A stretch of 64,000 nucleotides of DNA from an uncultured Candidatus Saccharibacteria bacterium (lineage in GTDB: Bacteria > Patescibacteriota > Minisyncoccia > Phycocordibacterales > UBA6899). Where the stretch lies: NCBI GenBank assembly GCA_964386905.1, contig CAYLUP010000002.1, positions 64,522 to 128,521 of the forward strand. Direction: 5' to 3'. This document shows, in pieces, positions 4,268 to 63,300 of this stretch (position 1 is the first letter of the stretch; every line of letters starts with the position of its first letter). The notes under the pieces are model-generated. The model saw nothing but the letters and a program-made list of their open reading frames with translations. It had not been told where the DNA came from and made no database searches. The translations under genes were made by a program, and so were the position numbers.

Positions 4268-4480
4268 GTTGGTGGGAGATGGGATAAGGGGTAGAGGGTA
4301 TGGGATAAGAAGAGGAGCGTATTTATATTTTGTTTAACACAGCGTGCTAATTGCGCCCATTGGAACGTTCTTTTTCACAGAGAACATTACCCATCAGCCA
4401 TACCCACTACCCCATACCCTGCACTCTCGTGAGGTCTGTGGAAAAGTGGCGAAGAATAAGCATTATTTGGTGTATACTGA

Positions 4481-13466: not shown

Positions 13467-13489
13467 ACATAGACCATCGTGGTGATGGT

Positions 13490-13861
13490 CTATTCTTCTT
13501 CCTCAACATACTCTGAAATAATTCTTCTTGCCTCATCTGCATCACACTGTGTGATGGCGATGAGATACGCTTCATATGTTTTTGGAGCTTGTTCTTTCAT
13601 GTTTTGTTCTAATTCATCCCGGAAAAGTGTGTACGCACGGAAGGCTTCCTCTTTGTGAGCACCCCCTGTCGAAATAAGCTCGCTCCAGTGTGCAATGCCC
13701 ATTGCCTTTAAGAAAAAATAAAAACACGCAGTGTTTTGTGCGTCATACATATTGAGTTCTTGCCCACTCAGCTGTCCACGTTCAGGGGATAGTAGTATGT
13801 GTAGGGCTTCGACAAGTGACTCGTTATTCCGTTGTCCTCGCTCGAGAGACATATGTTTCAA
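13490..13861 (-). CDS. Hypothetical acidic protein.
   Basis: ORF with protein-like composition that overlaps the NUDIX gene stop by ~38 nt, so its true start may be at an internal ATG. Confidence 0.35.
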   Translation of the reverse strand: MKHMSLERGQRNNESLVEALHILLSPERGQLSGQELNMYDAQNTACFYFFLKAMGIAHWSELISTGGAHKEEAFRAYTLFRDELEQNMKEQAPKTYEAYLIAITQCDADEARRIISEYVEEEE

Positions 13862-18847: not shown

Positions 18848-18851
18848 GCAT

Positions 18852-23210: not shown

Positions 23211-24431
23211 ATGAAGCACAAAAACATGCAACATGCTCCCTCCAGGAAGCACGCAAAGAATCTGGAGCGTGTTGCGTTTTTTTGCACAATTATTTTTTCA
23301 GTATGTGCGCTTCTTTTGTCCTCTGACGTTGAGGTTATTGGGGTGCATCGTGCTTCTGCGGAAACCGTGACGACGACTATCGCTGTTTCGATTTGTGGAA
23401 ACGCTATCGTTGATGTTGGAGAAGTGTGTGATGATGGTTTGGGAATGAATGATGGAACCTACTCGACATCAACTCTTGGAAGAAAGTGTTCCCCAAATTG
23501 TCGTTCGTATGGTCCTTATTGTGGAGATACAATTCTCCAGGCGTATTATCTCGAAGAGTGTGATGATGGAAATAATACAAATGGCGATCGGTGTTCACTT
23601 TCCTGTGAGCAGGAAGAGGACCCCATATCTTCTACAACACCTCCTGTTCCACCATCTACTCCGTCCGGGGATGGAGGAGGTTCGGGTGGAAATGTGCCAA
23701 TTCGTGCACAGACCCAAATTGTCTTTGAAGGGAAAGCCTACCCGAATGTAAGCGTGCAAATATTAAAAGACGGACAGTTGGTCGGTATCGCACAATCAGA
23801 CAGTGAAGCAAAGTTTTCCTACCTTGTCTCAAATGCAACACCAGGTCCGACTACGTTTGGATTCTGGGCAGAAGATGCAAAAAAGATTCGCTCTATTACG
23901 CAAACAACAACATTCCAGGTGACGCAGAATGCTGTGACAAATGTTGGAAACGTGTACCTCCCGCCGACTATCCGCGCACTTGTAAATAAGGTTCGCCCAG
24001 GTGCAGAAATAGCCATTGATGGGACAACAGTTCCAAGCGCTGTCGTAAACATTCTCCTAGATAAAAGCAAGATTCCTACGCATATGGCGACGTCATCATC
24101 TAACGGTGCATGGGACATGAAAATCCCGACGACCGGAATGACACCAGAGATCTTTCATACATTGATTCCATTCTTCGAAATACACCCTGGCGGATCTGCT
24201 GCAAAATTGAAAAGCACTAATGGATTGTCGCTGAACATTTTTGTTGGGAACAATGAGGTAACAAATCGTGCAGTACGGGCAGATATCAATAATGACGGAA
24301 AGGTGAACATGGTCGACTTTTCTATGCTGCTCTTTCACTGGGGTTCGACAAGTACTATCGCTGACTTAAACAGCGATGGGAAGGTGAATATCGCAGACTT
24401 TTCGGTCTTACTCTTTAATTGGACAGGATAA
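23211..24431 (+). CDS. Secreted protein with an N-terminal Myxococcus-type cysteine-rich repeat and a C-terminal type I dockerin domain.
   Basis: Cys-rich repeat CGNAIVDVGEVCDDGLGMNDGTYS...CSPNC...CGDTILQAYYLEECDDGNNTNGDRCSLSCEQE. C-terminal duplicated Ca-binding dockerin segments DINNDGKVNMVDFSMLLFHWG and DLNSDGKVNIADFSVLLFNW. Confidence 0.7.
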   Translation: MKHKNMQHAPSRKHAKNLERVAFFCTIIFSVCALLLSSDVEVIGVHRASAETVTTTIAVSICGNAIVDVGEVCDDGLGMNDGTYSTSTLGRKCSPNCRSYGPYCGDTILQAYYLEECDDGNNTNGDRCSLSCEQEEDPISSTTPPVPPSTPSGDGGGSGGNVPIRAQTQIVFEGKAYPNVSVQILKDGQLVGIAQSDSEAKFSYLVSNATPGPTTFGFWAEDAKKIRSITQTTTFQVTQNAVTNVGNVYLPPTIRALVNKVRPGAEIAIDGTTVPSAVVNILLDKSKIPTHMATSSSNGAWDMKIPTTGMTPEIFHTLIPFFEIHPGGSAAKLKSTNGLSLNIFVGNNEVTNRAVRADINNDGKVNMVDFSMLLFHWGSTSTIADLNSDGKVNIADFSVLLFNWTG

Positions 24432-28163: not shown

Positions 28164-28847
28164 TTATTTTAAGTAATCGTAGTACTGAAGTGCAGTGTTC
28201 ACATCCCTGTAGTTTATAATCCCATCTCCGTTAATATCATGAGATTTTGCATATCCTCGACTAATCTGACGAATCACCCGCGTGATATCGTAAATGCTGA
28301 TCTTTCCATCGCCATCTATATCTGGTGTTGCGGTCCCGAGGGGTCTTGGGTATATGCGGACACCTGAAGTGTGTTCAAGAATATCTTTTGCAGTGCCGTT
28401 GGCAAGCAAAAGAGTGCCATTTGTAATGATGAGTGTAAGCGGAGTGGCTTGTTTTGCTTGGAACCATGCTCGAAGAATATGTGATTGTTGCACCCCTTGG
28501 TTGAGTTGTGGTTTGATGATTCCGCCGCTCCAGGTGAGCACGCCATTGCTGTTGCTTATTTCTGGATTACCGCCCCAAAGATTGATTGCGCTGGCGTCAG
28601 TATCTATTCGCAATCCTTCCAGCTGGGGGGTCGGAAAACTTAAGACTCCGTCGGTTGCATTAATGGGGTATTGTGATTTCAGGTAGATATCAACAAAAAA
28701 AATCTCTCCAATTGACGGTGTTCTTGTGGACGGTTTGAGAAAAATCCCATTTTGTGGGATAGGGGTTTGAGGGGAAAGCATGAGAAACATGAGCGGAACA
28801 GATACGAGCGCTTTTCTGTGATGTTTTGTGATGATCTTTCTAATCAT
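28164..28847 (-). CDS. Secreted protein combining a cohesin-like domain with a C-terminal type I dockerin, an adaptor-scaffoldin-like architecture.
   Basis: N-terminal signal LVSVPLMFLMLSP. Beta-sandwich IFLKPSTRTPSIGEIFFVDIYLKSQYPINATDGVLSF.... C-terminal dockerin repeats DIDGDGKISIYDITRVIRQI and DINGDGIINYRDVNTALQYY. Confidence 0.55.
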   Translation of the reverse strand: MIRKIITKHHRKALVSVPLMFLMLSPQTPIPQNGIFLKPSTRTPSIGEIFFVDIYLKSQYPINATDGVLSFPTPQLEGLRIDTDASAINLWGGNPEISNSNGVLTWSGGIIKPQLNQGVQQSHILRAWFQAKQATPLTLIITNGTLLLANGTAKDILEHTSGVRIYPRPLGTATPDIDGDGKISIYDITRVIRQISRGYAKSHDINGDGIINYRDVNTALQYYDYLK

Positions 28848-40994: not shown

Positions 40995-41096
40995 AATAGC
41001 ATTATTTCCTTTAAAAATCTAGCAAGGAACACATTCCAACAAGAACGTTCTGGTGTGATATACACAGAGAAAACAGAGAATCCTGTGATACAATAA

Positions 41097-44000
41097 ATGA
41101 GAATTATGACAACGCCAGAGCTGTTGGAGTTTATTCGTATCGAGCATGCACTTGGTATGAGTCTTGCAGAGATCACTCGTCTATTGGTTACTGAGGGGGA
41201 GTGGGATCGAGAAGACGTTGCCGAAGCATTTCGTGCGCTTGGACTTCCGGAGGAACAAGCTGAAGAAGGATATGACCAGAAGAATGTTGCACCGCCACAA
41301 TCTTCTGATTTTGCGTCCCCCGTAGCACCGGTAACGAATGGCGCTCAGCTTGAACTCACCCAAAGTAGCGCTCCTTTTGAGGCTCAAGAGCCTGTCGTAA
41401 GACACGCTCCTGCTCCGGTTTCAGCACCTGGTCCAAAAGACATGGAATACCCACGGCATGCTGCTCCAATGCAGTATGTGGAGAAACCCGAAGAGAAACC
41501 GAAGCCAACACTTGCACGTCCAGCGTCGCTTAAGCCACAAGCATTTCGTCCGATGGTTCGCTCGACGCAAAATGGCATGGAAGTTTCCGCTGCACAAAAA
41601 CATGCGCACTCACAACATGGACCAACTATTCACGTGTCAAAATTACAGCATTTAGGTGCTGACACAAAGCACGGTCCAGCACCAGTTCCCCAAATACATA
41701 AATCAAAAGAATCAATTGAGACTAAAGTTGTTTTTGGGCTCGATGTGCCAGATGATGAGCCAACCCCAAAGAAGGTTGTATCACCTCTAGCGACAGAGAT
41801 TTTAGAGCCGCATGCAGAAATTGCGCTTTCTGTTCAGAACACACAAGAAAAAGAAAAAATATCATCGGATCTTTCTGTTCAGAAGACGGGGCCGACGAGT
41901 GCGGTCGCTATAGAGAAAGTTCAGGTTTCAGAATCTCACGGTACAGAAAGAAAAGCAGAAGATTCTTCTCAGGCCGATGAGGTGTTGCCAAAGTTTGATC
42001 TTGCTTCCGCCTTGTTGAAACAAGACGGTCATGCTGATACACAAGATGATACTTCTCGTGCCATAGAACATCCTGTTGCTGACACGGTTTCTGACTCAGT
42101 AGTGATCGAGGAGAAGGGCGTTGCGCGTACTGAATTACCAATTTCTCCAATCGATGCGAATCGGCAGTCTCAGAGTCTCACGACTCCTTCTGTTGACACA
42201 CAAACGCCGATATTGAATGAGAAGCCTCACGATACACAAGAGAAGAGCGCTTCAATAGAAACAACTCTCCACACAGAAACATCTCCAACGCATACGGAAG
42301 CACCAAGTAGTGTTGAGATTCATCATAAAGAAGAAGGGGCTGTGGAAAAACAGGTACATCAGCAAGGAGACGTCTCGATTGGGATTCCGCGGCACGATAC
42401 CGCTCCCCAATCTCCTCTACCTGCAGGTACTGTTGTGCCACAACAGCAACCACCAGTGGTTCCCGTTGCTGCCCAACCACCACCGCCTCCAGTTGCACCA
42501 CAGCCACAAATAATCGTTGTGCCAGCAAATATGTTTGGTGCCCCTCAGGGATTTCAGTTCCCTGAGATGCCGATGCAGATGGCTGGGATGCAGCCACGCA
42601 TGGCTCCTGCTTCGCCGCCTACGCAATACGCACCTGGCTCTCGCGTTGCTGAAATGAACGGAGTTTCTCCTGATGTTGAGGAGCAAGCATATCTCGCTCA
42701 ATTTGGGCAAGCACCAATGCAACAGGGTATAGAAAGGCCTCCACAGGCAACAATTGTGTCTCCGACTATTATTCATGCGCCGCAAGTCAATGCTCCAGCG
42801 ATGAGCACTCAACAGCCAGTCGCCCATGAAAGCATTTTGCCGCCAAAGCCAGAGCCTGTTCGTTTTGATATTGGCAAAGTACGAAGCACACAAAAGGGCG
42901 AATCCCCAAAATCTGCATTGCGCGATTCTGTTGAAAGTGCTCTTGCTTCAAACGGAGATCTTTCCGATTCTCACCCTGTTGTTTCGCCGATTATTAAACC
43001 GGATGAAGAACAAATTGCAGCCGCCGCAGCGCATTCACTGAAAGTTCCTCAAAAAAGAACAATGCATGCGGACTTGTTACGTATTGGGGAGGGGGTTATT
43101 CCTGAGCAAGTTGTTGCACTTGGCGATAAAACAGATGCGGTTGCTGGTGTTGCTCTTTCAGATACAGAGGCGTTTGAACAAGATTCTGTTCCGCCACCAC
43201 CACAAAAAAAAGTGAGTGCATCAATTTTTTTCCTAGCAATGAGTATCCTTCTTGTCTTGGGTTTGATTTTTGGTATTGGATATTATATTGTCGTCCTCAA
43301 AAAACCAAGTGCACAATCTGCTCTCTCGGGGGCGCTTCGTGGGTTATTCCAGGATGGGGCATTTTCTTATAATGCCGTGCTACAGATTCACGCCTCTTCA
43401 ACAGATGCACTGTTGGAATCACTCACTGTGCAAGCAAATGTCATGGGTACTGTTGTTGGACGTGCAAATATGTTTGAAAAAAGTATTCACGAGGGAGAAT
43501 TCATCATGACACAGCGAGGTGTGCCAGAGCCAATACATATCGAGTTTCAGGGTTCAATCATTGGGCAGGAAAAAGAAGTGTTTCTGTCTCAGCAAAAACC
43601 TACATTGAACACACCTATCGAACACCTTCTCCCTGTCTCAGAGTGGCTACGTGTTCCATACGCGCAACTTGGTGAAATGCTCGGTTTTTCAGGTGCCACA
43701 GAGTCTTATGATGCTGTGATATCAGAAACACAATTGTTCCAGGGCTTTATGGAACATTTCCCTATTGTTGCTCGTGGTCCAGTAACTGAAATTTCCGAAG
43801 GTGATCGGGTCTTATATCGCATCCCCGTATCTCTTGATGGGGGGAAAATGATTACACTTAGTGATCTTGTCTCTCGAATGCTTCGTGGTTCAACTGTGGT
43901 GGGTACTGATTCTGCGCGTCGTGACGTTCTTCTTGGGCGCTACGATATGATTTCTGGAGAATTAGTTGTCGACAAACTTAAACTGCATCCAATACGCCTC

Positions 44001-44561
44001 ACACTTCAGTCAGCGTTTGATCCAAGTAAAATTCCATTTCAGGGAAATGTGCTTGTGGATATCGCGTTCCAATATCCTAAGGAGTTGCCAGTTTTCGACC
44101 GCAATACAAAAACGATAGATGAATATAAGATTTTGCATGCTGATGCATCAGAAGCGGGTATTGTTATCGCAAAAGATTCGCCAGTGCTGCTTGCGGTTCC
44201 AACAATTGTTACCGCACTAAAACAATTTAGTGAGAAGGAAGGTTATTATCCTCTCCGTATCGATCAACTCTTTACGCTGAAATACGTGAATAGTGATGCG
44301 ATCCCTCAAGAGATTCGTTCGCGAATTCTTTATGCTCCATATGCAAGGCAACCAAAAGAGGGAGAGTCATTTGCTGCATGTGTGGCAAAGAAGGGAATGT
44401 GCAGTTTTTACCACCTTGGAACGACACTTGAGCATATGCGCGCACAAGAGCTTCAGGCAGATGTAGATTTGGTTTCTTCAAAAATTCAAGGAGGGGATAC
44501 TTCAGGTTGTGCTGGTGAACAAAGTCGTGCTTGCTATGATGTTGTAGGCATTCTCGAATAG
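41097..44561 (+). CDS. Giant bitopic membrane protein (1154 aa). It has a small N-terminal helical domain, a ~650-aa Pro/Gln/Ala-rich disordered linker, one TM helix and a ~440-aa C-terminal extracytoplasmic domain. It sits immediately upstream of mreB.
   Basis: N-terminus MTTPELLEFIRIEHALGMSLAEITRLLVTEGEWDREDVAEAFRALGLP. Low-complexity PQ-rich region including VPQQQPPVVPVAAQPPPPPVAPQPQ. TM VSASIFFLAMSILLVLGLIFGIGYYIVVL. The C-terminal domain is globular. Confidence 0.55.
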   Translation: MRIMTTPELLEFIRIEHALGMSLAEITRLLVTEGEWDREDVAEAFRALGLPEEQAEEGYDQKNVAPPQSSDFASPVAPVTNGAQLELTQSSAPFEAQEPVVRHAPAPVSAPGPKDMEYPRHAAPMQYVEKPEEKPKPTLARPASLKPQAFRPMVRSTQNGMEVSAAQKHAHSQHGPTIHVSKLQHLGADTKHGPAPVPQIHKSKESIETKVVFGLDVPDDEPTPKKVVSPLATEILEPHAEIALSVQNTQEKEKISSDLSVQKTGPTSAVAIEKVQVSESHGTERKAEDSSQADEVLPKFDLASALLKQDGHADTQDDTSRAIEHPVADTVSDSVVIEEKGVARTELPISPIDANRQSQSLTTPSVDTQTPILNEKPHDTQEKSASIETTLHTETSPTHTEAPSSVEIHHKEEGAVEKQVHQQGDVSIGIPRHDTAPQSPLPAGTVVPQQQPPVVPVAAQPPPPPVAPQPQIIVVPANMFGAPQGFQFPEMPMQMAGMQPRMAPASPPTQYAPGSRVAEMNGVSPDVEEQAYLAQFGQAPMQQGIERPPQATIVSPTIIHAPQVNAPAMSTQQPVAHESILPPKPEPVRFDIGKVRSTQKGESPKSALRDSVESALASNGDLSDSHPVVSPIIKPDEEQIAAAAAHSLKVPQKRTMHADLLRIGEGVIPEQVVALGDKTDAVAGVALSDTEAFEQDSVPPPPQKKVSASIFFLAMSILLVLGLIFGIGYYIVVLKKPSAQSALSGALRGLFQDGAFSYNAVLQIHASSTDALLESLTVQANVMGTVVGRANMFEKSIHEGEFIMTQRGVPEPIHIEFQGSIIGQEKEVFLSQQKPTLNTPIEHLLPVSEWLRVPYAQLGEMLGFSGATESYDAVISETQLFQGFMEHFPIVARGPVTEISEGDRVLYRIPVSLDGGKMITLSDLVSRMLRGSTVVGTDSARRDVLLGRYDMISGELVVDKLKLHPIRLTLQSAFDPSKIPFQGNVLVDIAFQYPKELPVFDRNTKTIDEYKILHADASEAGIVIAKDSPVLLAVPTIVTALKQFSEKEGYYPLRIDQLFTLKYVNSDAIPQEIRSRILYAPYARQPKEGESFAACVAKKGMCSFYHLGTTLEHMRAQELQADVDLVSSKIQGGDTSGCAGEQSRACYDVVGILE

Positions 44562-44651
44562 CCTATTGACAAATAAGCTGTTAATGTGCAAAAAATCGTA
44601 CTGTTTGTACGATTTTTTGCTATTTCTTTCTCCTATGCTAGAGTTCAGTGC

Positions 44652-45665
44652 ATGAGTATATTTGGTGGAAAGCTTGGCATTGATTTGGGCACCGCAAACA
44701 CGCTCGTATACGTTCCCGGGAAAGGAATTGTTTTAAACGAGCCATCTGTTGTTGCAGTTTCAGAGCGAGATAATAAAATTCTTGCAGTTGGTGTTGAGGC
44801 AAAAGAAATGATTGGACGAACACCAGATGATATTATCGCATATCGCCCAATGAGAGATGGTGTTATTGCTGATTATCGTGTGACCGAAGCGATGTTGCGT
44901 TACTTTATTTCCAAAGCGATGGGAACATGGTCGCTCTTGAAGCCCGAAGTCATGGTTTCTGTTCCTGCTGGAGTAACATCGACAGAGCGCAGGGCGGTCA
45001 TCGAAGCTGCACTTCGGGCTGGCGCCAAAAATGCATATGTTGTAAAGGAACCAATTCTTGCCGCCATTGGAGCAGGTATTCCGATCTATGAAGCTCGAGG
45101 ACATATGATTGTGGATATTGGGGGAGGAACGACAGATGTTGCAGTTATTTCTTTAGGTGGAATTGTTGCATCGACTTCAGTAAAGTGTGCAGGTAATCGT
45201 ATTGATGCGGCAATCGCTGATTACATTAAAAAAACATTTAATCTTGCCATCGGTGACAAAACCGCAGAAGATATCAAAACGCAAATTGGTTCTGCTGTTC
45301 CATTAGAGCAAGAACTATCGATGACAATAAAAGGACGTGATTTCATTGCTGGACTTCCACGATCAGTGACAATATCAACAAATGAGATTGTGCGTGCCAT
45401 TGACCGAGAACTTCGAGAAATGATTAAGGCAATTAAGGATGTTCTTCAGGAGACACCACCAGAACTATCGGCGGACATTATTGATCGCGGAATTATTATG
45501 ACTGGCGGTTCGTCACAGCTTCGAAATTTACCAGAACTGGTGTATCGAAGAACTGGTGTGAAGGCAAGCATCGCAGATGATTCGTTGTATTGTGTTGCAA
45601 AAGGAACTGGAGTTGCCCTTGAACACTTAGACACATACAAAAAGACGATTATTACAAAACGATAA
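44652..45665 (+). CDS. mreB: Rod shape-determining actin homolog MreB.
   Basis: FGGKLGIDLGTANTLVYVPGKGIVLNEPSVVAV (phosphate-1 motif), DIGGGTTDVAVISLGG, and IMTGGSSQLRNLPELV. Start placed at ATG 44652 (MSIFGG...). Confidence 0.9.
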   Translation: MSIFGGKLGIDLGTANTLVYVPGKGIVLNEPSVVAVSERDNKILAVGVEAKEMIGRTPDDIIAYRPMRDGVIADYRVTEAMLRYFISKAMGTWSLLKPEVMVSVPAGVTSTERRAVIEAALRAGAKNAYVVKEPILAAIGAGIPIYEARGHMIVDIGGGTTDVAVISLGGIVASTSVKCAGNRIDAAIADYIKKTFNLAIGDKTAEDIKTQIGSAVPLEQELSMTIKGRDFIAGLPRSVTISTNEIVRAIDRELREMIKAIKDVLQETPPELSADIIDRGIIMTGGSSQLRNLPELVYRRTGVKASIADDSLYCVAKGTGVALEHLDTYKKTIITKR

Positions 45666-48313: not shown

Positions 48314-51300
48314 ATGACCAAAACCTCGTGGAGGAACTGGTTTTCACGTTGCGTACGCAGGGTATTTTTCTCTTTGCGTGGCTTTTTCGTTGGGGCTCAG
48401 AATCATTCTGTCGTGCGTTTTGGTAGGAGGATTTGGGCACTTTTTCAGCAGTCGTTCCGAATGATTTCGACACAGAAGCGCTCAAAAATGGTGTGGATGT
48501 CTACTGCTGCTTTTGTGATTTTTCTTTCTGCAACAATGACCGTTTTTGCTTTGCGAGCGAAGGCGGAAAAAGAAGTTCACGCCTATATCAGTCCTTCGTA
48601 CGTGACCGGTGAGGGTTTTGAAAGAGTAGAAGCTGCACTTGTTCAGGATTTTTCTGTTGATGCGCGATTTTCTGATTTCACACCAGAATATGTTGCACGT
48701 GTCGCATTTGGCTCCTTTGCACAAACCGTAGAGGAGAGTGTTCAGGAGGAATTGCTTTCAAGCACAACAACGCCATCCGCAACGACGACAGAAAGCACGA
48801 GCGGTGCACCTGCAGATACTGGTGTTGTTCCTGCTGAAACAACGAGTGTTTCTGAGTCTTCGACCGTCCCAGCTTCAGAAGAAAGTTCTTCTGCGCCTTC
48901 TTTGGAAAATCCCATTGAAACAAATGGTGCTCAATCTGCACCAGAAGCACCGTCAACCGAACCGCTTTCATTTTTGCGTAGTATTGTTTCTCCAAAGACT
49001 ATCTTGGCTCAAGAGACACCAGAGAGTGCTCCTGTCTCTGTTGCCGAAGATACTCCTGAATCAACTCTCGTTGTCGAAGGAGTTGAAGCGGTGACTGCGC
49101 CTGTTCAAGATGACAACACTTTTTCGGTGGATGCGACTTCATCAGCAACAATTGTTTCTGATACGGTAAAAGAAGAAAAAGAAAATCGTGATCCATATGC
49201 GATTGCCTCGTGCTCTGTATTTTCTAAACCATGCCACATGGCTGTGTTTGAGGGCTTTGGAGTTGGCACGGAACTTTCTCAGTATCCTGTGAGAAATGCT
49301 GAGGTTGTATTTTCTGTTGCCGCAAAATCACTTCCAACAGAACAACACGATCGCCTTCTTGTCCGCGCGTATAAAAATGGTCGTTGGGTATTTTTGGGTG
49401 AGCATGTCGTTCGTGGTGAGACAGATAACGCATTTCGAGGAGGATATTTACGATTCCCACTTGAATTATCTTCATGGTCAGACTTGTCGGACATGATCGT
49501 AGTTGCTGAATATGTCCGTGAAGGCGAATCTGATTCAACTCTGTTGCTTGATGCTGCATGGGTGGACGTTGGTTTTGAGGCGGCAGAATCACCGGATGAT
49601 CTTGCATTGTTCTCTCCAAATGTAAAAAGCGCGTTGCTTTCTCGCGACGCAGAGCGTCGTGCAAAGGAGCGAGATACGCTTGATGTCGGTGCAGGTGCTG
49701 TTGTGCATTTTGAGAACACTATTTCTGATCTTCCGAGTGCAAAACTCCGCGTGGCAACAACGAAGGAAAAACATGCAGTTTTGGGAACAGGAGAAGAGTA
49801 TGTCGCGGTGACCAATTTTAGTAATGCAACCGAACAGGTGCGTTTGTCCTTTTTCTTCCCAGACGGAAATGGTCGAGTGACCTCACTTTCGAAATATGTT
49901 CATAATGCGCCGGTAAAAAATGTTGAGACAGAGGTGACTCCTATTGCATATGTGTGTGAGTCACCTTGGGTAATAGCATCTTCATCCCTCGACGTATCTT
50001 CAAATGAAGATGTTGGGATTTCTGAGTACACATGTCTGCAGACAGAAGAGAAGCGCTCATGTGCATCGCTTTCGGATGATGCAACAAACTGTTACTCAGA
50101 AGTGACGACAATGACTGACGCAAATGCGACCGTTTTCAGACGCGGGTTTTATGTCGATGCGATCACCGGGGGTCCGTTCTCTGATGAACAGAGCATATTT
50201 GGAAAGGCACTCAGTGCTTTGCTTCTTGATATGCCAGAAGGAATTATTCCATCATCATCTGCTGAGGTGTCTCATAGCCAGACGTACGATATCGAACCCG
50301 GAGCAACAAAGTATTTTAAATTCGCATACAATGTCCCATTAAATGCACGGAGCGATGTGTACATTCAAGCAGTCTCTTCTGGCGGTGCATATGGACTCTC
50401 AAAAATTGTTGCAGATGGATCATGGAACTGGAGGGTCCCTGTGGATGTCGGACTTCCATACGCAACGTTTGGAGAGGAGGCTGTTGTGCCGATTTCTTTG
50501 GATCGTATGCCTCAAGAGTTTTGGACAACGGTACATGAAGATGGCTTAGATATTCGTGTATCTGATGAGCGTGGCGTTGTTGAGCTCCCATCATGGGTAT
50601 CGGAGTTCAATTTTGCGCAACGGAAAGGGCTTGTATGGGTGCGATTGCCACATGGTTCTGGGGTCATGCCTCGCGTCTATCTCTATGCAGGGAACTCTGA
50701 AGCAGCCTCGAAGATGGCTCCAGAAAAACCTTTTCTTTCATCCAGTCTCATTGAGAGGGCCGTTGTGATGTCAGAAGACGAAGAGGTGTCTTCGGTGAAG
50801 ATCACTGCGCTTGCTGATGATACGCGTGTCCGCGTCGGAGATGCTGCGGAAAAGAATCTTGTGTACGGTGAGACTGTTCTTTATGAACATGTTCCTCACG
50901 GTGCACTCGTCTATGCAAATGGTCCAGTTGCTGTCCATGCGCTATCGTTGTCGTCTCGTGCCATTGCATTACCTTTTGGTGTGGCAGGGAACGAGTTCGG
51001 TATTGCGGAGAAGTATGGTGAGTTTTATGTTGCATCGACACGTCCAGAGGAATCAGCGCTTTCTCTTGATCAGAACGAAGAGGTACTTGTCCCATACGGT
51101 CTGACACATTTCTCAGAACACGAAAGTTCTGCTTTTTCGGTACGTCTTCCTTCTGTTGCCGCGTTGTTTGATGAACAAGAAATTCTCCCTCTTCTCTCGA
51201 GGACATCTGACGAGAGGTTGCGTTTTTCTGCTTCTGCTCTGCTCGATCAAAAGGCTGATGCTGTTCGTGCTGTTTGTCCGAATGGGTATGCATACGGCGT

Positions 51301-54300
51301 ATTTGACGTCTCTGGCGCATCTCTTGCAACGACAACTTGTGGAAATATCCTCAATGGTCCATTTGAACACGGCATGCTCCTTCGTGTTCTTCCGACTGTA
51401 GGAAAAACGTCTCCTGGTGCTCTGTTCTCCTACGTACTCCGAGGGAATGAGTATCCTATGCTTCAGTCTGCTGCGCTTTCGCGTGGGACTGCAGGGTTTG
51501 ATCCAGAGGTTGCTTTTGGAGCACCAGAGTTTGTGGTCCCAGGAGAGCATCGCATATTTGATATTGAAGGAGAGAAAGAGCGTGCGCATGTGAGTCGTTT
51601 TCTGAGTAAACAGCGAGAATTTGCTGCTGAAGAAAATCCAACATTCCGTTTTCAATATGTTCCTCAGTCAGGAGGGTTTTTCCGTACTCTCCGCTCTTTG
51701 GTTGGTGCAGCTCCTTTTGCAATTACGAATGTCTCGGTAGAGCAAGCGGGCGCAGTGCTCCCAATCACCCCTGTTGTTTCTTATGGGTCATCTCTTGAGT
51801 GGACGGTGACTATTGACAAGAAAGAAGCAACAAAGATTGTTCCTGGGAAATTACTTCTACGGATGACGATTAAAGAAGGCGGTCAGACCTACGAAGATGT
51901 GTATGATTTTTATTGGGGACTTCTTGCGGTGAATTTCAATAAAGCAACATACGAGCAAGGAGAGATAGCAGACATCTGGTTGGGGGCATTGTCAGAAACA
52001 GGAAACACTGTCTGTGATGCAAAACTCAAAATCTTCATCACTGATACTGCGAGTTCGACTGTTGAAGTTCCCGTAGTGCAGTCGGGAAAGTGTGATGGTA
52101 ATTCCGTTGTTGATGTTCCGGATTATTCCGCGTCATATCCCGTAGTTGATGTTGGCGTCCATTCTGTGCGCGTATTGCGTCTTGATGAACAAGATAATGT
52201 TATTGCAGAAGTGCGAAGTCACTTTAATGCCGTGTCCCGTTCTCCTTTTGTCATTGAGAGAAAGGGCCCAACGCGTATTAATCCGACCGCTCCCTACAGC
52301 ATGACGCTTCGCGTATTTGCACGTGAAGCTTATGAGGGGCAAATTGTTGAGCAGATTCCTGCTGATTTTGAGGTACTTGAAAGAGGTGGATCGACGTTGC
52401 GCTGGAAGGACGATTCTCAACAAATTAAAGAAGCGGTATGGTCTGTCAAGATGAAAGCTGGGGAAATCTATCAGTTTACCTATACGTTTGATGCTGCTGA
52501 CAAATCGCCGTACATCTATTTCCTCGGCCCTGCTCGTATTGGTGATACAGATTCGTTGTATATTGAGCCTCGTGAGTGGCAAATTGCATCTGACGTCGCA
52601 GGAAACATGCTCATCTACTGGGATGGTGGAACGACTCCACCAGGGTGGACATGTGTATCGTGTCTCGGCACTGATCCGTTCTATCAACGGTACCCAATGG
52701 GATCATCAACTCCGAGCATTAATGGTGGCGCAACAACACATACCCATACGTTTACGACATCGGTCAGTTCTGCGATTTACTCAACGTCAATTTTGGTGAA
52801 TACGGGAATTCCAGCAACATTGGTGTATAAGGACCACACACATGCGTTTACTCCGACATTTGCCACAGGCTCAAATCTTCCACCATCCATGTCTTTGCGC
52901 ATCTTGCGAGCGAACGCAGTGGGTGATGTTCCTATTCCGCAAAATGCAATTGTGATGTTTGAATCTACTCCTCCGTCTGGATGGACAACATATAGTACGT
53001 TGGATGGAAATTTCCCATATGGTGATTCTGGTATTTTCAATACGCAAGGAAGTGCGACTCATAGCCATGCACTTTCTGGCACACTTGGTACATATAGTGG
53101 AGGTTCGCTCTATCGCAGTACAACTTTTGGAATATACCCGAAGGTTGCGAATACTACTCACGGACATGCAGTCACAGCAACATCAACGAACACAATTTCA
53201 AATGACCCTCCATACGTGACATACATGCTCGGAAAAGCAAGCGCTGCAGGGGCACTTCCAAATGGAGCGATTACGATGTGGGATAACGACCCTGCTTCTG
53301 GATGGGTGCATTTGTCTGTCGATGGTGCGGTAATGAGTAATCGTTTTGTGAAGGCGATGAGTTCTGCAGGTGCAACGGGAGGGTTATCACATCACGAGCA
53401 TACAGATACGACCAATATCCCAACTGGAGCATCGAATTCAAATACAAGTTCTGCATCACTTTCTGGATCTTTTGGATCAAATCCAAATCATACACATACT
53501 GTTGACTATACCCTCTTTTCTGATGCAGTTACCCTTCCTCCATATCGTACGGTTGTCTTTGCAAAAAGAAGTGTTGGCGTGCCAGAATTTACACAAACAG
53601 CTTTCCGGTTTTACGATAATGTAAATGACCCACTTCCAGTTGATCCATGGCCAGCTGGTGCTGTAGATGTTGCAGAAGGGATGTCTATTGAAGATGTTGC
53701 TTATCGCATTAAGCCTGGTTCGACATTCAGACTTCGCGTCTCTGCACAAATCTCTAATGCAACAGCAACTGCAAGCACAACACCACTCAAACTTCAGTAT
53801 TCTACTGATGGGGCATGTTCTACTGCGCTCAACTGGAATGATGTTGGTACTCCTGGCGGCTCAGCTCCGCTTCGTGGATACGATAATACTCTTGTGTCAC
53901 AAGGCACTCAGTTGGCTAGTGTTGTATTGGCTTCAAGCACTTTGTCATCGGTGCAGTTCTATAGTGAATCTTCGTCAGCACAAGCATTCACACAGGATGC
54001 AGGAATTGGGACATATGCTGAGTTCGATTGGGTCTTGCAGGCAGGAACAAGTCTTGCATCATCTTCTCGATATTGTTTGCGTATGGTTGAGGGGAGTGGA
54101 AAAGTTTTCGGTCAATACAGCGCATTTCCAAGTTTTCTCTCAAATAGCGCGCCAATTGCTCCCGTGCTTCAGACACAATTTAATCATGCGAAGATCCTGA
54201 CGTTAACTCCGACGTTGACATTTGCAGCCTCGGATGAGGAGGGGAACCCAATGCACTATGCGATTGAAATTGACGATGATCCAAATTTTGGATCACCAGT

Positions 54301-57300
54301 CGTCTCGCATTCGACAACAAATAACTCAGCATATTTCAGCAACCTGACAACGCTAAGTAACAAAGCACCATATAACAACGCAGATACAATTCAGTACACT
54401 GTGCAGAATGGTGCGCTTGCGAATAATACAACGTATTGGTGGAGGGTTCGTGCGATGGATCCTACAGGCAGTACACAGTATGGGTTGTGGTCTAGCGCAC
54501 GTGCTTTTACAACGGACACTTCTCTCGCGACGTCGGCATGGTTCCAGACAACAGATGCACAGTTTGTACAAAATACGCTCGAGAATATTACTATTTCAGG
54601 AAATGCTGCACGGCTGACAGGGGGTCAAACCTCTGGCACGATGTATTCTCCTTCGATCGTCTTTAATGCGGGTCCAATGGGAACCGTATGGGGGAGTTTG
54701 CTCTTTACCGATGATGGGGGAGCTGGAATTACATACCAAGTTGAATACCAGGATGAGCAGCAGAACTGGGTTCTTATTCCAGACACTGCGTTATCTGGAA
54801 ATTCGACTGGGTTCGGAAGTTCCCCTGTGTCTCTTACAAGTGTTGACCCACAGTTTTATCCAGCAATTCGCCTGCGTGCAAATTTCACAAATAGTGGAAC
54901 GCCAGTACTTTCTGATTGGGGCGTGAATTGGGCATACAAAACACTTGCTCCAATCCTTTCATCACCATTCAATCATGCAAAGGTGAGTACAACTACACCA
55001 GCATTACTCTTTGCATCGACAGATCCATTGAATCGTCCAGTAACATACGAGGTACAGTACTCAACAGACCCGACATTTACCACTTCAACGACCTGTAATA
55101 GCGACTCTTCGTGTACTGCAGGTTTTAAGAATATTGATACCCCAGCAGACACTTCTCCGTTTACATCTGCAGAACGCGTCGAGTTTACCTTCCAAACTCC
55201 ACTAACAAATGGAACGACGTATTTTTACCGTGTTCGTGGATACGGCTTTGGAAGCGGGGCTTGGTCATTCTGGTCTGAAGTACGTGCATTCACTGTAGAT
55301 ACGGCAGCGACGACATACCCAACGTGGTTCCAAACGATGAAGGGACAATGGGATGCTGATACACTTTCTGGAACGTATGCAAACCCTTCTCATAGCGTCG
55401 CTGTTGCAACGACAAGTGATCGCGTGCTGGTGGTATATGGGGACGGCTCCAATAGTAGGCCGAAGTACCGATTTTACGAAAATGGTGTACTCGGCACGGC
55501 AAAGGAGATGCTTTCCATTAACTCGACTGTGCTTTGGGCGGTAGCACGACCCTCACTTGTTAATGACCAGTTTGTGGTTGGAACAATGGGGGCTGACCGT
55601 GATGTGCGATTTCAGGTGTTTGAAAATGGCATTTGGTCACGACTCTTTACTCTGACCGATACATCACCTTCCGACAAGAGGCGAAGTTTTGATGTTGCGT
55701 ATGAATCGCAAAGTGGTCGTGCAGTGGCTGTTGCTTGCAGTGGCACAGATGCAGTCTATGCAATATTTGACGGTTCTACCTGGGGAAGTGTACAGAATCT
55801 CGATTTACCTTTTACAACAAACTGCGAACTGGTAAAGATGGCTTCAAGCCCAACACAGAATCAGATTATTGCGCTCTTCCGCAACACTGGTTCAACATTT
55901 CGTGCAGAGGTATGGAATGGAACTCAGTGGGATAATGGTTCCGCAATGAGTTTCAGCGCTTCCGCACAGATTCAAGAGCCAGCGCACGATGGTATGGCGA
56001 TTGAGTATGAACGAACGAGTGGGAAGGCAGTTGCGGTTGTATCAAATAACACGACGAGAGGATTTCGATATCGTGTATGGAGTGGAAACAACTGGGGTAC
56101 AGAGACCGCGTATGCGCTTCTCGGGGGAAACGATGGAAATAGAACAAATGCGCAATTCGAATGGGGAAATTTGAGACGCAGTCCAACAAGTAATGATTTG
56201 ATGCTTTGTGGCATCTCACAGTATTCTCCGACAGATGATGGTGCATATACGGAATTTGTTCGATGGAATGCAGTAACACCAGCATGGGAGCCAACAACGG
56301 CTTCAAAACTTGGTGAATACTGGCCATATTCTCGCCATGCGCAATCAAATGATTGTGTTTATGAAACGAAATCAGGACGTGCAAACAAACTCGTATATGT
56401 TGCTGATGAATCATGGCAGGTTGCTGACGGAAGTGCCTCATACAATAGAACTATATTTGACGTACTTTCTAATACGACAAATATGGCAAGCGCTTGGCAA
56501 TCTGGAGCATCATATACTACTCGAATTTGGTCTACGTATGCTGCATATCGATGGTATGCGGGAGAGACATGGACATCACGTCTTGAACGAGCATCGTACT
56601 CTGGAGATATTTTAGGGATTTCCTTAATGCGAAATTCTTTGAGCTATATTTTCCGTATGTGGAATGGTTCTGCCTGGTCTTCCGCAATTACGATGGGTGC
56701 ATCTTCTGTAACGACAAAGCCGTATGGTCAGCCGTATGACATGTCTGCGCAGCAAGGACTAACCCAAGGAAAAGTATTTTCATCTCCAATCGTTTTTGCA
56801 GATGGAAATGGTCCTTCATGGAGACAGGCCCGCTTTACCACGACACGACCTGTTGGGACAACGGCATTGATTTCTGTTGAATATGAATCGTCTCCTGGGA
56901 ATTGGGAACGAGTTCCAGATGCGGTTATTCCTGGAAACTCAACAGGAACATCAACAAGCCCGATTGATTTATCTGGCTTGAACTCTTCCGTCTACAGTGT
57001 GATTCGCCTCCGTGCGGATTTAACCTGTAATGGTTTTGCTACATGTCCAACTCTTGATGACTGGACAGTGGAGTGGGCGGCGGGTCTTAATATTTCTGGT
57101 ATTGCACGAGACAATGATCGTACGACTGCACTTACGAGTGGTACGGTAAAGGTCGCCGTAAACGGTGTTGAGCAGGTTGGAAAAACAGGGGCAATTTCTG
57201 GAACAGGAACATGGACAATTTCTGGCGTGAACTACAAGAATGGAGAGACTGTTACTGTGTGGATCGACAATCCAGGAGTAGCAAATCGCGCTGTTTCTGT

Positions 57301-60300
57301 TGTAAAGTATGCTGGTGCCGGAAATCTCTCAAATGTGGAGTTGTCACGACGCTGGCTCACGATTGGTGATTCGGGACAGGCTGGACAAACAATCACAAAT
57401 GCAGATCTGAAGCTGTTTGATAATTATAATGAATCATTAGCCCAAACACGTGCGGACATCTTCTTTAATGTCGACGGTTCAGACAATCTTACTGCATGTG
57501 CAAGTGCACCGTGTAGTGATGCGTCTATCGTCGTGGCAACAGGAACAACCTGGAGGCCGAAAGCATCAGGAACAAGTGTAAGTACACTTTCTTCTCTTGT
57601 ATTAAATGGAGAGGTGACAGCTGATGCAAATACGATAAAGATTGGAGGTGATTGGAGGAATACAGGAACATTTACCCCTGGAACATCTGTTGTGATTTTT
57701 ACTGCAACCTCAAGTACACGAATACTCAATAATACAGGTGCTGCACAATACAAATTTTACTCAGTGACATTCGGAGAGGGTTCGTCTTCAGCGACATGGC
57801 AATTGCAATCACCGCTGTACACGAATGGAGATCTTGTGGTGAATTATGGTACGCTTTCTCCGCTTTCACAGCCTATTTCGATTGAGAAGAGTTTATCTCT
57901 TGGTTCGAACGGGGTATTCCTAAAGGGGACAGCAACAACAACATTCCTTGGAACTGCTGTTGCGACATGGTCTGACTTGACTGCTCTGCAGCAAGACATG
58001 GGAAATGTGCTTGTTGATGGTTCGCCAAAGACACTTACCCTAAGTACCCCCGCAAAAGCAACCTCACTCACCATTGCAGATGGAGATACGTTTGCATTTG
58101 GAGTGAACACGTTAACACTTTCTTCGCACTTCACAAATAATGGATATATTAATTCCGGTTCGGGGCGCCTCTCTATTGCCGCATCTGGAACAGCTAATGT
58201 GAAGCAGGGCGGACAGACGTTGAATAATGTGACACTTGCAAGCGGGACAGTGACTTGGATTGATGCACATGCAACAACCACGGGTGATCTCTTGATCTCG
58301 GGTGGGGCAGTAAACCTGCCGGCACAATCACTCGCGGTGGGAGGAAGCTTCTTGCACACGGCTGGATCTTTCGCAGCTCCGCTGACAACGCGCATGACAT
58401 CGAATGTATCAGGAAAGCAGCTTTCTCTTCTGTCGTCACTTCAGACTCTTGAGTTTGTTGGCACTGGAGCCTGGTCATTTATCTCATCAGCAACCACAAC
58501 TGGGACAACGAGTATCCAGTCTGGGTCTGTGACACTCCCTTCTGGCATACTCGCCGTTGGAGGAAATCTCGTCGTGTCTCCAACTGCGACATTGCAATCA
58601 AATACTGGGACAGTCAGAATGTATGGAGCATCTGCGACCATACAGCTCAACGGAAAACAGCTCTCATCTCTTGTTGTGGCATCTGGGTCTTCGGCGGCAC
58701 TACAAGATGCGACGGCGACATTCCTCGGGTCTCTTACTGTTGATGCTTCTGGCGTGTTTACTCCCGCATCAAGCAGCACCTTGACCATTGGCGGTTCGTT
58801 AATAAATAATGGATCATTTATTGCAAATGCATCTCATGTCATTATGAATCGTGCAGCAGGTCCTGCGACTCTGAGTATTGGTTCATCCATGTTGAGCAAG
58901 TTGACTATCTCTGGTGCGGGAAGTTTCAGTATTATAGGAAATACTCGCGTGACATCCGATTTCGCATTAGGAAATGTAGGAGCCTTTAGTATGGAGAGCG
59001 GACGCGAGTTACGAGTTGATGGGTTTTATACAACAACTGCACAACAGGCAAATACAACATGGACGGGGTCTACGCTGCGTTTGACTTCTGGCGCAACCAT
59101 GAGTGCAAACACAAAAACAACAGGTGGGGATAGTTACGGAAGTATCATTCTGGATGAAAATACTCAATTACGTTTATGGAACTCTGATGCAGTATCAATA
59201 ACAACGAATGCGGGAAGTAGCGTGTATGCGCAAAACTGGGCAAACGTATCGGGAGCGCTTCGCATTTATGGAACCTATACTCAGCAATCAGGTACTGCAT
59301 GGTGGAGTTATGCAACTGATTTTGATGGCACAGCACTTCCATCTGGAAGTGAGCGAACTGCTACTGTCGCCATTGCGCCAGGATCATCTGTCGCTTTTGC
59401 AACATCATCCGCTCTTGCTGTGATTGGAGATGCTGGCGCGTCAACCACAGTGGCAACGATTGGTGTAGGAAATTATGCTATGAGTTTTGCTTCGTCTACA
59501 CTCTCTGCCCAATTTGCAACATTCAGTGGTATGAATACCTCTGGACTCTCGTTGTCTGGTGCAACAAATATTGCAGTATTGAGCGATGTGTCGTTTACAA
59601 CTGATATTAATGCGGGAAATATCATGACGTTTACAGCGGATGTTGTAAACGCGAATGCAGGAGAACAGTATTATCGCGTCGGCTTTGACAGATCTTCTCT
59701 TTCTGCGACAAACATCCGTGTTTTGTCAGCAACAACGCAATCTCTTCGTTTTAAACAGCATTATGGAAATATTGACGGGGAATCATTTGACAATGATCCA
59801 ACGGGGAATCCAGGAGAAATTCGATGGGATGATTCAAATTATCTCATCACGATTTCAGGTACCGTTTATAGTGACGCAGGTGTCACGCCAATGGATGCTT
59901 CTGTTTGCGATGGAGCAACCCCAGCAGTAACGATAAAAGTTTCTGGTGGTGGATCTTTCACTGGTCCATGTGATGTTGGTGGGACATTTAGTATCCCTAA
60001 TGTCTCCTTTACTGGAGAAACAACGATGTCTATCTTCCTGGATGACACTGGTGCGCAGGCAGTAACGGTAACACGAGGCGCGTCTGTTGATTTGTCGGGA
60101 ATCCGGCTCTATCAAAATCGTGTCATTCTTCGTCATGAAGACGTGACCCCAATGACTATCGCAGCATTGTCTGATTTTGACGTGGATGATGATAGCGACA
60201 TGATCTTTACTGCAAATGGAGGTACTCTGTCTGTTCCAGGTACGGCTGAGCTTTGGGTTTGGAGTGGAAAAACATTCACTCCTGGGGGAAACGTGACAAC

Positions 60301-63300
60301 GGCAGCTGGTGGAACTATTGGATATGGTGGTGCGTTTCACTTAGACAATAGTGCCACTTATACCGCATCTTCTGGTGAAATTATCACCATAGGTGGACGA
60401 TTCCAAATGGATTCAAGCGCAATACTGAATGCTGCATCATCAACTTTTGTCTTTAATCCATCAGATACACGAACATTGACTGCAACCGCCCCAATTGTGT
60501 TCCATAATCTAGAGAAGACTGGCGTTGGAACACTAACCGTGAGTTCGACAATGGCAATCGGTGGTACATTCACGATTACAATGGGAACATTGTCTGGTGT
60601 TGGGAGTATTACTGCACAACAAGGGATAGTGGGAGATGGAACTGTATCTCTTACAGGGGGGACAGTGACGCTTCCCAATGGTGGATTCTTTGGTGGAAAT
60701 ACTGCCTGGACAGTCAATAATTTGGTTCTTGGAGATACGGGTACTTCTACAACCATAAAGACTGGAGCCGGGACAACGACAGTACGAGCATTACTCACAG
60801 TGAGGAGTCAACACAGTCTTGATCTCAATGCAACGCCCTTGGTGTTTACTGGATCAAATACTGTCCTGTCTGTTCTGGGATCTATTGATACTACCGGTGC
60901 AACCATTACTTATGCGCCAACAGGAACAGTGAGTGTTGCAAATATTCCGTATACCAATCTTTCTTTCATGGGAACAGGAACAAGCACCTTGCCTGCTATG
61001 CAGTTGCAGGTTGCTGGAAATATGACTATTGGAGGCGGAGCATCAACCCCAAAAGTGACAGCTCTGGTCAATGACCCAACAATTACCGTTGGCGGAAACA
61101 TTTCCATTGCCTCTGGCGCTCGATTTACTGCATCTGATGTTGGAACACTATTTGTTTCCGGGAGCTGGACAAATGCAGGAGTCTTTACACACTCACTTGG
61201 CTCTGTTCAGTTCACTGGGGGTGGAGTTAAGACAGTGAATCCAGGGTCCTCTCCGTTCGGGAATATTTCCTTCGCAGACGATCTTGGCTCATGGACTATT
61301 TTGGAAAATGCTACTGCTACAAATATGGTTATTGCGTCAACCTCTGCATTTACCATGGCAAGCGGGAGAACTTTGGAAATTACAGGAAGTTTCAGTAACG
61401 CTGTTGGTGGCACTGCGACAACATGGACTGGTGCAACGCTGTTTGTGAATAGTGGAACACGTTCGGAAATAAATACAAAGACTGCAGGTGCTGATACGTA
61501 TGATATTGTTCGTGTTGGGGCTAATACACAGACAGTGTTCTGGAACTCATCATCAACGCAGTTTGTTGCACAGCCTACTGGTGGTGCACTTTCTCTGAAT
61601 CACGCAGGAATCGCTGGTGATGCCTATGTGTTTGGTGATTACACTCGAAGCACGGGCACAGAGTATTGGAGTTATTACAAGGATTTTGATGGAGCAGTCT
61701 TAAATGCGGGTGACTTACGAGCTCCACGGATTCGATTCGCACCATCTTCTACAGCATCATTTGTTGGTACAAGTGCGATTGAACTTGTTGGTGTTGCTTC
61801 TGCAACAACAACTGTTGAGGCGCTCTCAGGGTCCTACGGATTGAATTTTGGTGGGGCAACATCAACACTTCAGTTTGTAGATTTCTCTGGCATGAATGCA
61901 ACAGGCATTCAGTTTACTGGTTCTGGAAAAGTGACACAGTTTGATGATATTGTGCTTCGAAACCCTTCTGGGGTTGGGACAATGGTGTCTCTTGCAGCCT
62001 CTGTCATTACGGCAAATCCACTTCGTACAACGTATCGCAATGCATTCATTGCACCAGGCGGAACAAATATTTCTGTGACTGGAACAACAACATCCGCTTG
62101 GCGTATTCGCAACCACTACGGTGGGAGAGATGGTGAAGCGTTTGATGGTGATCCTGCAGGAGATCCGGGATATGTTATTTGGGATGATTCTGCTGCACAG
62201 ATTTATATTTCTGGAAAAGTACTCCAAAGTGATGGTGTAACAGTGTCGTCTGCGTGTAATGGTGTTTCTCAGTATGTTGCATTAAAAGTGCAAGGGTCTG
62301 GAACATTGACGTCTGCATGTAGTGCTGTTGATGGGAGTTACTCAATCGGTCCGATTGTATATGCTCCGTATGACACTCTTGCTGTATACACTACAGCTGC
62401 AAGCGGGGTTCAGGCGGTTTCATATGCATACCGTCCGATGACGAATATTGGTGATTATGATTTGTACGAACGTACGATTATCCTTCGAAATGAACAAGAT
62501 GCGATTACCAATGCCGGCATAAACTCCTATGATAAAGATAATGACGCAAATATCCCGGTACGGGTGACGGGGAGTGCGCTCGTTACAGATACAAATTCGA
62601 AAGTCATCGTCTGGGATGGAAAGAAATACCAGCCACAAGGATCAGTCACTGTAGGAAGCAACATGAATGCTTCCTCTATCGACGGAGACGTTGAACTGCG
62701 TACGCAGGCATCTTGGATAACTGGTGCTGGGGAACAATACACCATTGGAGGAGACCTTGTTGTTCTTTCACAAGGCCAGGTTCTTGGTATGTCGGGAGAA
62801 TTCATCTTTACTTCGGCTGTTGCCGGGAAATCAGTGTCAGCGCTTTCTTCTACAACGTTGCCGTCACTTCGCTTTAATGGTACGGGGAGCTGGTCTCTGT
62901 CTGGTTTCGCATCAACCACTGGGACACTTCTCGTTTCTCAGGGAACCGTAGCGCTCCCGGCAAGCACCTTCGGTATTGGTGGGAGTTTCACTAATCAGGG
63001 TACTGTACAATCAAATAACGGAACACTATTCTTTGAGGCAACAACAACAGGGAATCAGATTCGCACAAATGGGAGCACATTTGGAACGCTTCTATTTACG
63101 GGAGTGGGCTCATGGGAGTTTATGGATTCCGCAACCACGACTGGGGCATTCACTGTTGCGTCTGGTACCGTGAAGCTTCCGGCAGGATCGTTATCTGTTG
63201 GTCTCGACTTCGAGAATACTGGAGGTTCGTTTATCGCAAACGGTGGTACGGTCATTGTGCGTGGAGCTGGCACACGGAAGGTCGCTCCGGGCGGGTCAGC

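Follow-up and report, generated by a model that had tools for sequence, protein, structure and literature searches.

The 64,000-nucleotide stretch of contig CAYLUP010000002.1 that is studied here (hereafter the window) carries, directly upstream of a gene for MreB, a gene for a large bitopic membrane protein that we labelled BIG. Comparison of the sequence, the predicted structure and the genome context of BIG with those of its relatives shows that it represents a new, uncharacterised family, which is made from known kinds of parts and which is genetically tied to a second MreB. The protein consists, in this order, of a three-helix N-terminal domain of 48 amino acids (aa), a linker of about 650 aa, a single transmembrane helix and an outer region of about 420 aa. 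The features of the locus are listed below, with the evidence for each in brackets (AF2: AlphaFold2 model).

41097..44561, + strand: gene for the bitopic protein BIG, with the ATG at 41106 as its probable start (open reading frame, homologues of the same architecture, aligned N-termini).
41106..41252, + strand: N-terminal cytoplasmic domain of BIG, aa 4-52, an acidic three-helix bundle (AF2, alignment of 55 sequences).
41262..43208, + strand: cytoplasmic linker of BIG, aa 56-704, enriched in Pro, Ala, Ser and Gln (composition, indel-rich alignment, variable position of the transmembrane helix).
42414..42776, + strand: P/Q-rich core of the linker, aa 440-560 (composition).
42654..43196, + strand: block of conserved short motifs, aa 520-700 (invariant alignment columns, family consensus).
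43215..43301, + strand: single transmembrane helix of BIG, aa 707-735 (Kyte-Doolittle hydropathy, AF2).
43308..44132, + strand: first outer domain, aa 738-1012, a predicted LolA/LprG-like open beta-barrel with helices (AF2, Foldseek).
44133..44558, + strand: second outer domain, aa 1013-1154, a head like that of type IV pilins and pseudopilins (hhalign, AF2).
44588..44620, + strand: terminator-like hairpin of 14 pairs, flanked by an A-run and a T-run (scan, recurrence in three related loci).
44617..44644, + strand: putative mreB promoter, with a -35 TTGCTA, a 16-nt spacer and TGn-TAGAGT (read by eye, tentative).
44652..45665, + strand: mreB paralogue, here named mreB1, of 337 aa (Pfam, NCBIfam, identity to relatives).

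BIG is encoded by a single open reading frame (ORF), which comprises 1154 aa when counted from the first ATG and which is not a chance product, since homologues with the same architecture exist. An earlier note on this DNA had described the ORF upstream of mreB and had given it a layout of a small helical N-terminal domain, a linker, one transmembrane helix and a C-terminal outer domain; the ORF is indeed there and both the hydropathy profile and the AF2 models bear out the layout, with an outer region of about 419 aa instead of the ~440 aa that had been estimated. The protein probably begins only at M4 (ATG 41106) and would then have 1151 aa, because all 55 aligned relatives have their N-terminus at the equivalent position, where they start with M-[VIT]-T-x-E-L-L. 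A TGnTACAAT element is present just upstream of the BIG start, at 41085-41093. The hydropathy profile contains one hydrophobic segment (aa 707-735, with a Kyte-Doolittle maximum of 2.7 over 19 aa), which AF2 renders as a helix, and it contains neither a second peak nor an N-terminal signal peptide. The predicted topology is that of RodZ-type proteins, i.e. a single transmembrane helix with a cytoplasmic N-terminus and an extracytoplasmic C-terminus. Pfam and NCBIfam assign no family to BIG, and searches of the PDB sequences with the full-length protein and with a profile of the N-terminal domain yielded nothing significant.

The N-terminal domain is the best-conserved portion of BIG. On the basis of an alignment of 55 sequences, the first ~48 aa are modelled by AF2 as a bundle of three helices (aa 4-15, 20-29 and 35-45) with a predicted local distance difference test (pLDDT) score of 82; W36 and D40 are invariant in this alignment (55/55) and G20 is found in 52 of the 55 sequences. 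The domain is acidic (net charge -6, with a family mean of -5.4), which suggests that it binds protein rather than DNA. Its sole sequence similarity, to MerR-DNA-bind, i.e. the second helix pair of MerR, stays below the threshold (22 bits versus a cutoff of 25.4, seen for 12/55 members), and a Foldseek search with the model returned only generic helix-turn-helix (HTH)-like bundles with E-values of 1 or higher. The same ~48-aa domain heads many other bitopic, single-pass proteins that have unrelated outer regions (P0091, P0098, P0112, P0116, P0123 and others), and it seems to be a cytoplasmic module that recurs without having been annotated.

Between this domain and the membrane lies the linker, which had been described as a proline- and glutamine-rich disordered region of ~650 aa. 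The length (649 aa) and the enrichment stand (P 12.7%, A 11%, V 9%, S 8.9% and Q 8.1% over aa 61-715), but only aa 440-560 are truly P/Q-rich (27 P, 17 Q and 15 A among 121 residues) and a crude test of charge against hydropathy gives a borderline value (H of 0.438 versus a boundary of 0.430). The linker is probably largely disordered, a view made plausible by a fitting composition (only 2.5% of the residues in aa 56-704 are aromatic), by a poor conservation with variable length and an alignment rich in indels, and by the position of the transmembrane helix, which varies from aa 271 to aa 744 across the family. A tandem-repeat analysis of BIG revealed no repeat expansion that would account for the length of the linker. 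It is not featureless, however, as conserved short motifs are present on the cytoplasmic side. In BIG these are found in aa 520-700, namely SPDVEEQAYLAQFGQA, KPEPVRFDIGKVR, KVPQKRTM..DLL and, right before the transmembrane helix, PPPPQKK (invariant columns in the alignment designated A1); the family-wide consensus comprises KFDLSxxR and KRTMxSDLLLRG, together with DFLGIF in the main group.

The outer region was modelled by AF2 from an alignment of 25 sequences, with a mean pLDDT of 84.9 across the whole construct (aa 702-1154). In the model, the transmembrane helix leads into a beta-rich domain that also contains helices; next comes a helix of 34 residues (construct residues 314-347) that packs on a sheet and that constitutes the long helix of the pilin-like head. 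When compared with the PDB by Foldseek, the beta-rich domain matches LprG (E-value 8e-8), members of the LolA superfamily (1e-6 to 9e-6) and RseB (9e-5), each with a probability of ~1.0, at a target-normalised TM-score of ~0.5. The predicted structure contains the open antiparallel beta-barrel, with helices that form a cavity, by which the LolA/LprG/RseB proteins are recognised.

For the last ~130 aa the relationship extends to the sequence level. A profile comparison by hhalign with 19 short N_methyl prepilins gave a probability of 99.84% (E-value 3.7e-30 over 127 columns), and a search of 1.84 billion proteins recovered prepilin relatives of the head with an E-value of 1e-13; these short prepilins carry the Pfam domain N_methyl and match the solved structures of GspG and PilA. 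The C-terminus of BIG has the predicted alpha/beta fold of a pilin head domain, four of its cysteines are nearly invariant across the family, and sub-threshold T2SSG matches occur in 3/25 family members. An extracytoplasmic position fits both the conserved cysteines and the pilin/LolA-like fold. The hhalign match begins at prepilin position 38, that is past the hydrophobic alpha1-N helix, which BIG lacks, and neither the G-F-T-L-I-E N-methylation motif nor, with it, a class III signal was found anywhere in BIG. The head should therefore not be able to be processed or to polymerise, and we rejected BIG as a functional polymerising pilin because the prepilin signal is missing. Four polytopic membrane proteins with 3-7 predicted transmembrane segments (P0088, P0101, P0103 and P0146) end in the same pilin-like head, which can thus be viewed as a C-terminal surface module that is reused in several architectures.

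Word-indexed homologue searches, with full BIG or with family alignments, recovered only 3-4 proteins, the full-length queries probably being swamped by the low-complexity linker. An exhaustive profile search (hidden Markov model) with the BIG family yielded 184 hits. The full architecture, i.e. N-terminal domain, linker, transmembrane helix, LolA-like domain and pilin-like head, is found in roughly 50 clusters at 50% identity, with lengths of 736-1195 aa, and none of these clusters has a Pfam or NCBIfam family; the longest linkers belong to the clade of the window. A scan of the GTDB genomes retrieved the gene in only one genome (the metagenome-assembled genome JAJZQJ01), and further metagenome loci were located with a close alignment of 11 sequences. 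As the earlier note had suggested, the family is lineage-specific.

The mreB gene of the window starts exactly 90 nt past the stop codon of BIG and on the same strand, just as had been reported. Retention of this adjacency in relatives had been put forward as a test of the proposed MreB-associated scaffold, and BIG is directly followed by mreB in 13 of the 14 assessable loci (the window, L001, L003-L008, L013-L015, L017 and L018), with gaps of 56-234 nt and no gene in between. Across the loci BIG is only ~20% identical, PriA ~44%, Frr ~66% and HolB 33-41%; in view of the values for BIG and PriA, the adjacency has outlasted substantial divergence. The junctions on both sides behave differently. 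Between priA and BIG there may be nothing, a 252-aa gene, murA, an HTH-murA gene, or murA plus a small gene, and between mreB1 and holB 0 to 3 genes are inserted, whereas the junction between BIG and mreB1 is uninterrupted in all 13 loci. The 252-aa gene lies in L001 (9155-9913); it has no Pfam match and no counterpart in the window. In 8 loci murA adjoins BIG, a position that would link the block to wall synthesis. The HTH-murA variant in L005 (4717-6225), which directly precedes BIG, encodes a 502-aa fusion in which an XRE-type HTH_3 domain stands N-terminal to MurA (EPSP_synthase). Other relatives have a plain murA at this place, and the window has none there.

The mreB of the window is a genuine mreB (Pfam MreB_Mbl, 3e-136; NCBIfam PRK13927, 463 bits versus a cutoff of 293). 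Relatives keep another mreB gene apart from the one linked to BIG. This second mreB, of 349 aa, is found 4.7-6.6 kb downstream in L007 and in L008/L009. In L007 (16729-18895) it heads mreC, a gene for a 91-aa membrane protein that is probably mreD, and the gene for PBP2; the L008/L009 locus (18639-18976) stops inside the second mreB, the remainder of the operon falling outside the sequence. Compared with the BIG-linked MreB of seven relatives, MreB1 shows 85-96% identity, and with the operonic MreB2 of L007 it shares only 47%. The same range of 85-96% applies across genomes to the mreB1 genes of L001, L003, L005-L008, L013-L015, L017 and L018. The BIG-linked mreB1 is a distinct paralogue that resides outside the mreBCD-PBP2 operon, which accounts for the earlier observation that mreC and mreD do not follow mreB: homologues of MreC, MreD and MurA are absent from the entire 64-kb window. 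Measured against the identities of Frr and HolB given above, the conservation of MreB1 is unusually high, as one would expect of a filament whose partners are fixed.

The gap between the two genes contains signals of its own. Within the clade of the window, the hairpin recurs in L001 (~13486-13545), L003 (~9830-9885) and L004 (~4300-4360), with stem cores (ATCGTAC, GTCGTCC, GTCACCC and GTCACCA) that differ and yet remain complementary. In the same four loci the putative promoter comes next, its end 6-7 nt away from the mreB ATG (7 nt in the window, where it remains below the threshold of the scan tool). From this arrangement we would tentatively infer that mreB1 has its own promoter and, as the promoter ends so close to the ATG, a near-leaderless mRNA. 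BIG and mreB1 are thus neighbours, yet probably not a simple operon.

What BIG does is a matter of interpretation, and the reading that we put forward, as a possibility that falls somewhat short of an even chance, is that BIG is a lineage-specific transmembrane adaptor that couples MreB1 to the envelope, i.e. a functional analogue but not a homologue of RodZ. The analysis established how BIG is built, which folds are predicted for it, its homology to pilins, its family, its synteny and the paralogy of MreB, and every binding step and the cellular role are inferred. The proposed contact with MreB1 draws on the adjacency of the two genes in 13 of 14 loci. On the inside, the acidic N-terminal domain and the conserved short motifs, carried on a long and flexible cytoplasmic tether, would engage a conserved partner, most probably the MreB1 filaments under the membrane. 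The single transmembrane helix would relay positional information across the membrane. On the outside, the LolA/LprG-like domain, as a putative lipid-binding module, and the non-polymerising pilin-like head would engage lipid or lipoprotein of the envelope, or components of a pilus, so that the MreB1 cytoskeleton would serve as the track along which the envelope or the surface is assembled. Wall precursors would be supplied, in most relatives, by the neighbouring murA. What speaks for a conserved cytoplasmic partner is that, in a protein that otherwise evolves fast, conservation is highest in the N-terminal domain and the cytoplasmic motifs.

Several observations weigh against this coupling to MreB1. 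The whole housekeeping block, from fmt-def-priA to mreB1-holB-frr-rseP, is syntenic in these genomes, so that the adjacency may in part go back to an inherited gene order, and the conserved terminator-like hairpin together with the probable separate promoter makes co-transcription of BIG and mreB1 doubtful. In the exceptional locus L002, BIG occurs in an 859-aa form that lacks the pilin-like domain and is followed by rplU rather than by mreB. Moreover, two other proteins with the same N-terminal domain were looked up in their genomic context (P0091 in L011, 8001-9677, and P0098 in L010, 2359-3879) and neither is encoded near mreB; since the domain heads bitopic proteins away from mreB, it may bind something more general than MreB1. 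The same observations count in favour of BIG being a transmembrane-anchored envelope protein, i.e. a carrier of lipid or lipoprotein or a pilus-associated protein, without any functional tie to MreB, the adjacency being inherited and the cytoplasmic part being a spacer or a site for another partner. This alternative, which we regard as somewhat unlikely, also draws on the fact that only the outer domains have recognisable relatives (the LprG, LolA and RseB folds and the prepilins). It does not explain, however, why the BIG-mreB1 junction stayed intact in 13 loci in which both neighbouring junctions are interrupted, nor why conservation in BIG is concentrated in the N-terminal domain and the cytoplasmic motifs.

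Three further explanations assign to BIG a role that is known from other systems, and all of them appear less probable. The topology of BIG is shared by membrane-tethered signalling proteins of the anti-sigma or ToxR/CadC type, in which case the outer region would be a sensor that controls the release or the activity of the N-terminal domain, possibly via RseP: the LolA-like RseB, which is the sensor partner in the sigma-E pathway, is among the fold matches, the N-terminal domain is an HTH-like three-helix bundle with weak MerR-like similarity, and rseP is located three genes downstream of BIG. Yet the order frr...rseP is a common housekeeping arrangement, zf-HC2, RskA and OmpR-type DNA-binding matches are lacking in BIG, none of the loci examined has a sigma factor gene adjacent to BIG, and the N-terminal domain is acidic, which led us to reject BIG as a DNA-binding membrane regulator; we consider a signalling role improbable. 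A pilus- or pseudopilus-like machine, with a PilN-like BIG whose N-terminus binds an actin-like ATPase and whose head docks on pilins, has a precedent in PilM-PilN, where an actin-fold protein binds the N-terminus of its bitopic partner, and it would agree with the homology of the C-terminal domain to prepilins from similar metagenomic sources. To this possibility we likewise give little weight, because MreB1 is by its NCBIfam score a bona fide MreB and not a PilM, pilB, pilC, pilM and pilN were not seen in the BIG loci, the head lacks the signal and the hydrophobic helix that are needed for entry into a fibre, and the 859-aa forms of BIG do without the pilin-like domain entirely.

The least probable explanation, and in our view a very remote one, is that BIG is a genuine RodZ orthologue which has diverged strongly. 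Its inside-to-outside bitopic layout, its small helical cytoplasmic domain, its proline-rich linker and its mreB neighbour would all agree with such an origin, and the earlier note had described such a layout and suggested a comparison of both terminal domains with those of RodZ. No similarity was found. HTH_25, HTH_3 and XRE gave no match at E<=10 in the isolated N-terminal domain of BIG, nor at E<=1 in the 55 relatives, and no RodZ_C (DUF4115) match was obtained for BIG or for 25 relatives. By contrast, an E. coli RodZ control (validated by its own Pfam matches) is hit by both RodZ_C (85.5 bits) and HTH_25 (53 bits). The profile of the N-terminal domain aligns with the RodZ N-terminus with an hhalign probability of 0.25%, and a Foldseek search with the model does not list RodZ among its top hits. 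As BIG moreover has three helices in 48 aa, against five in the XRE domain of RodZ, and outer domains of other folds, we rejected it as a RodZ orthologue or homologue.

Should BIG indeed bind MreB1, RodZ would have a counterpart that is not homologous to it and that arose independently, and a duplicated MreB would be seen to serve a task beyond the mreBCD elongation machinery, in bacteria of which the cell biology is almost unknown. Such binding would at the same time provide a first handle on the unannotated family of roughly 50 clusters, and define a three-helix module found at the N-terminus of many membrane proteins in these organisms, as well as a pilin head that is reused as a fixed surface module. 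A wider picture, which is unlikely as it stands but worth stating, is that of a lineage, probably within the Candidate Phyla Radiation (CPR)/Patescibacteria, with two MreB systems: the classical mreBCD-PBP2 system, and an ultra-conserved MreB1 that is wired via BIG to the surface, where it would position a lipid-handling and pilin-like module to organise surface lipoproteins, lipoglycans or pilus sites. MreB1-BIG would then be an inside-out coupling device without a described counterpart. Should the adjacency be inherited only, what is gained is a modest improvement in annotation, i.e. a surface protein with a LolA/LprG-like and a pilin-like domain.

Other parts of the window are listed here for completeness. 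Downstream of mreB1 lie holB, frr and rseP, and then a giant ORF (48314-64000, + strand) that runs off the end of the window after more than 5200 aa without a stop and that has DUF2341 as its sole Pfam match. Dockerin type I proteins, one of which also carries DUF4215, and a protein with fn3 and the N-terminal domain of purple acid phosphatase are encoded at 23211-24431 (+), 28164-28847 (-) and 14335-15816 (+). Most of the large ORFs in the first 30 kb of the window (1-30 kb) have no Pfam match, for instance an ORF of 1398 aa at 44-4240. The many ORFs without a family, the dockerin and fn3 surface proteins, the presumed surface ORF of more than 5200 aa and the abundance of prepilin relatives would suit an organism of the CPR/Patescibacteria kind.

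BIG thus combines features that are known from separate systems. With the LolA/LolB/LprG/RseB superfamily it shares the predicted fold of aa 738-1012, at a sequence identity of only 8-13%, with modest TM-scores and without a Pfam match; BIG is held by an N-terminal transmembrane helix, whereas those proteins are lipoproteins or soluble in the periplasm. With the type IV pilins and GspG (N_methyl plus T2SSG) it shares, by way of the heads of the short prepilins, the homology of its last ~130 aa, including the conserved pairs of cysteines, but it differs from them in lacking the class III signal peptide, the N-methylation motif and the hydrophobic alpha1-N helix, and in that the head is the C-terminal module of a transmembrane-anchored protein of ~1150 aa. 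ZipA, the membrane tether of FtsZ, likewise has a small domain that binds the cytoskeleton, as is proposed for BIG, at the end of a long and flexible P/Q-rich linker to the membrane; here the likeness is one of analogy and not of homology, as ZipA has its transmembrane helix at the N-terminus and its globular domain at the C-terminus, i.e. in the opposite orientation, and is not known to have outer domains. RodZ comes closest in overall design, with a single inside-to-outside membrane pass, a small helical cytoplasmic N-terminal domain, a low-complexity proline-rich region and a role connected with MreB, which for BIG is presumed. The RodZ N-terminal domain is, however, an XRE fold of ~80 aa and five helices, whereas that of BIG is a 48-aa three-helix bundle that is not an XRE-type HTH; the linker is mostly periplasmic in RodZ and cytoplasmic in BIG; the outer part of BIG is LolA/LprG-like and pilin-like where RodZ has RodZ_C; and the presumed partner of BIG is a second MreB paralogue that is encoded outside mreBCD.

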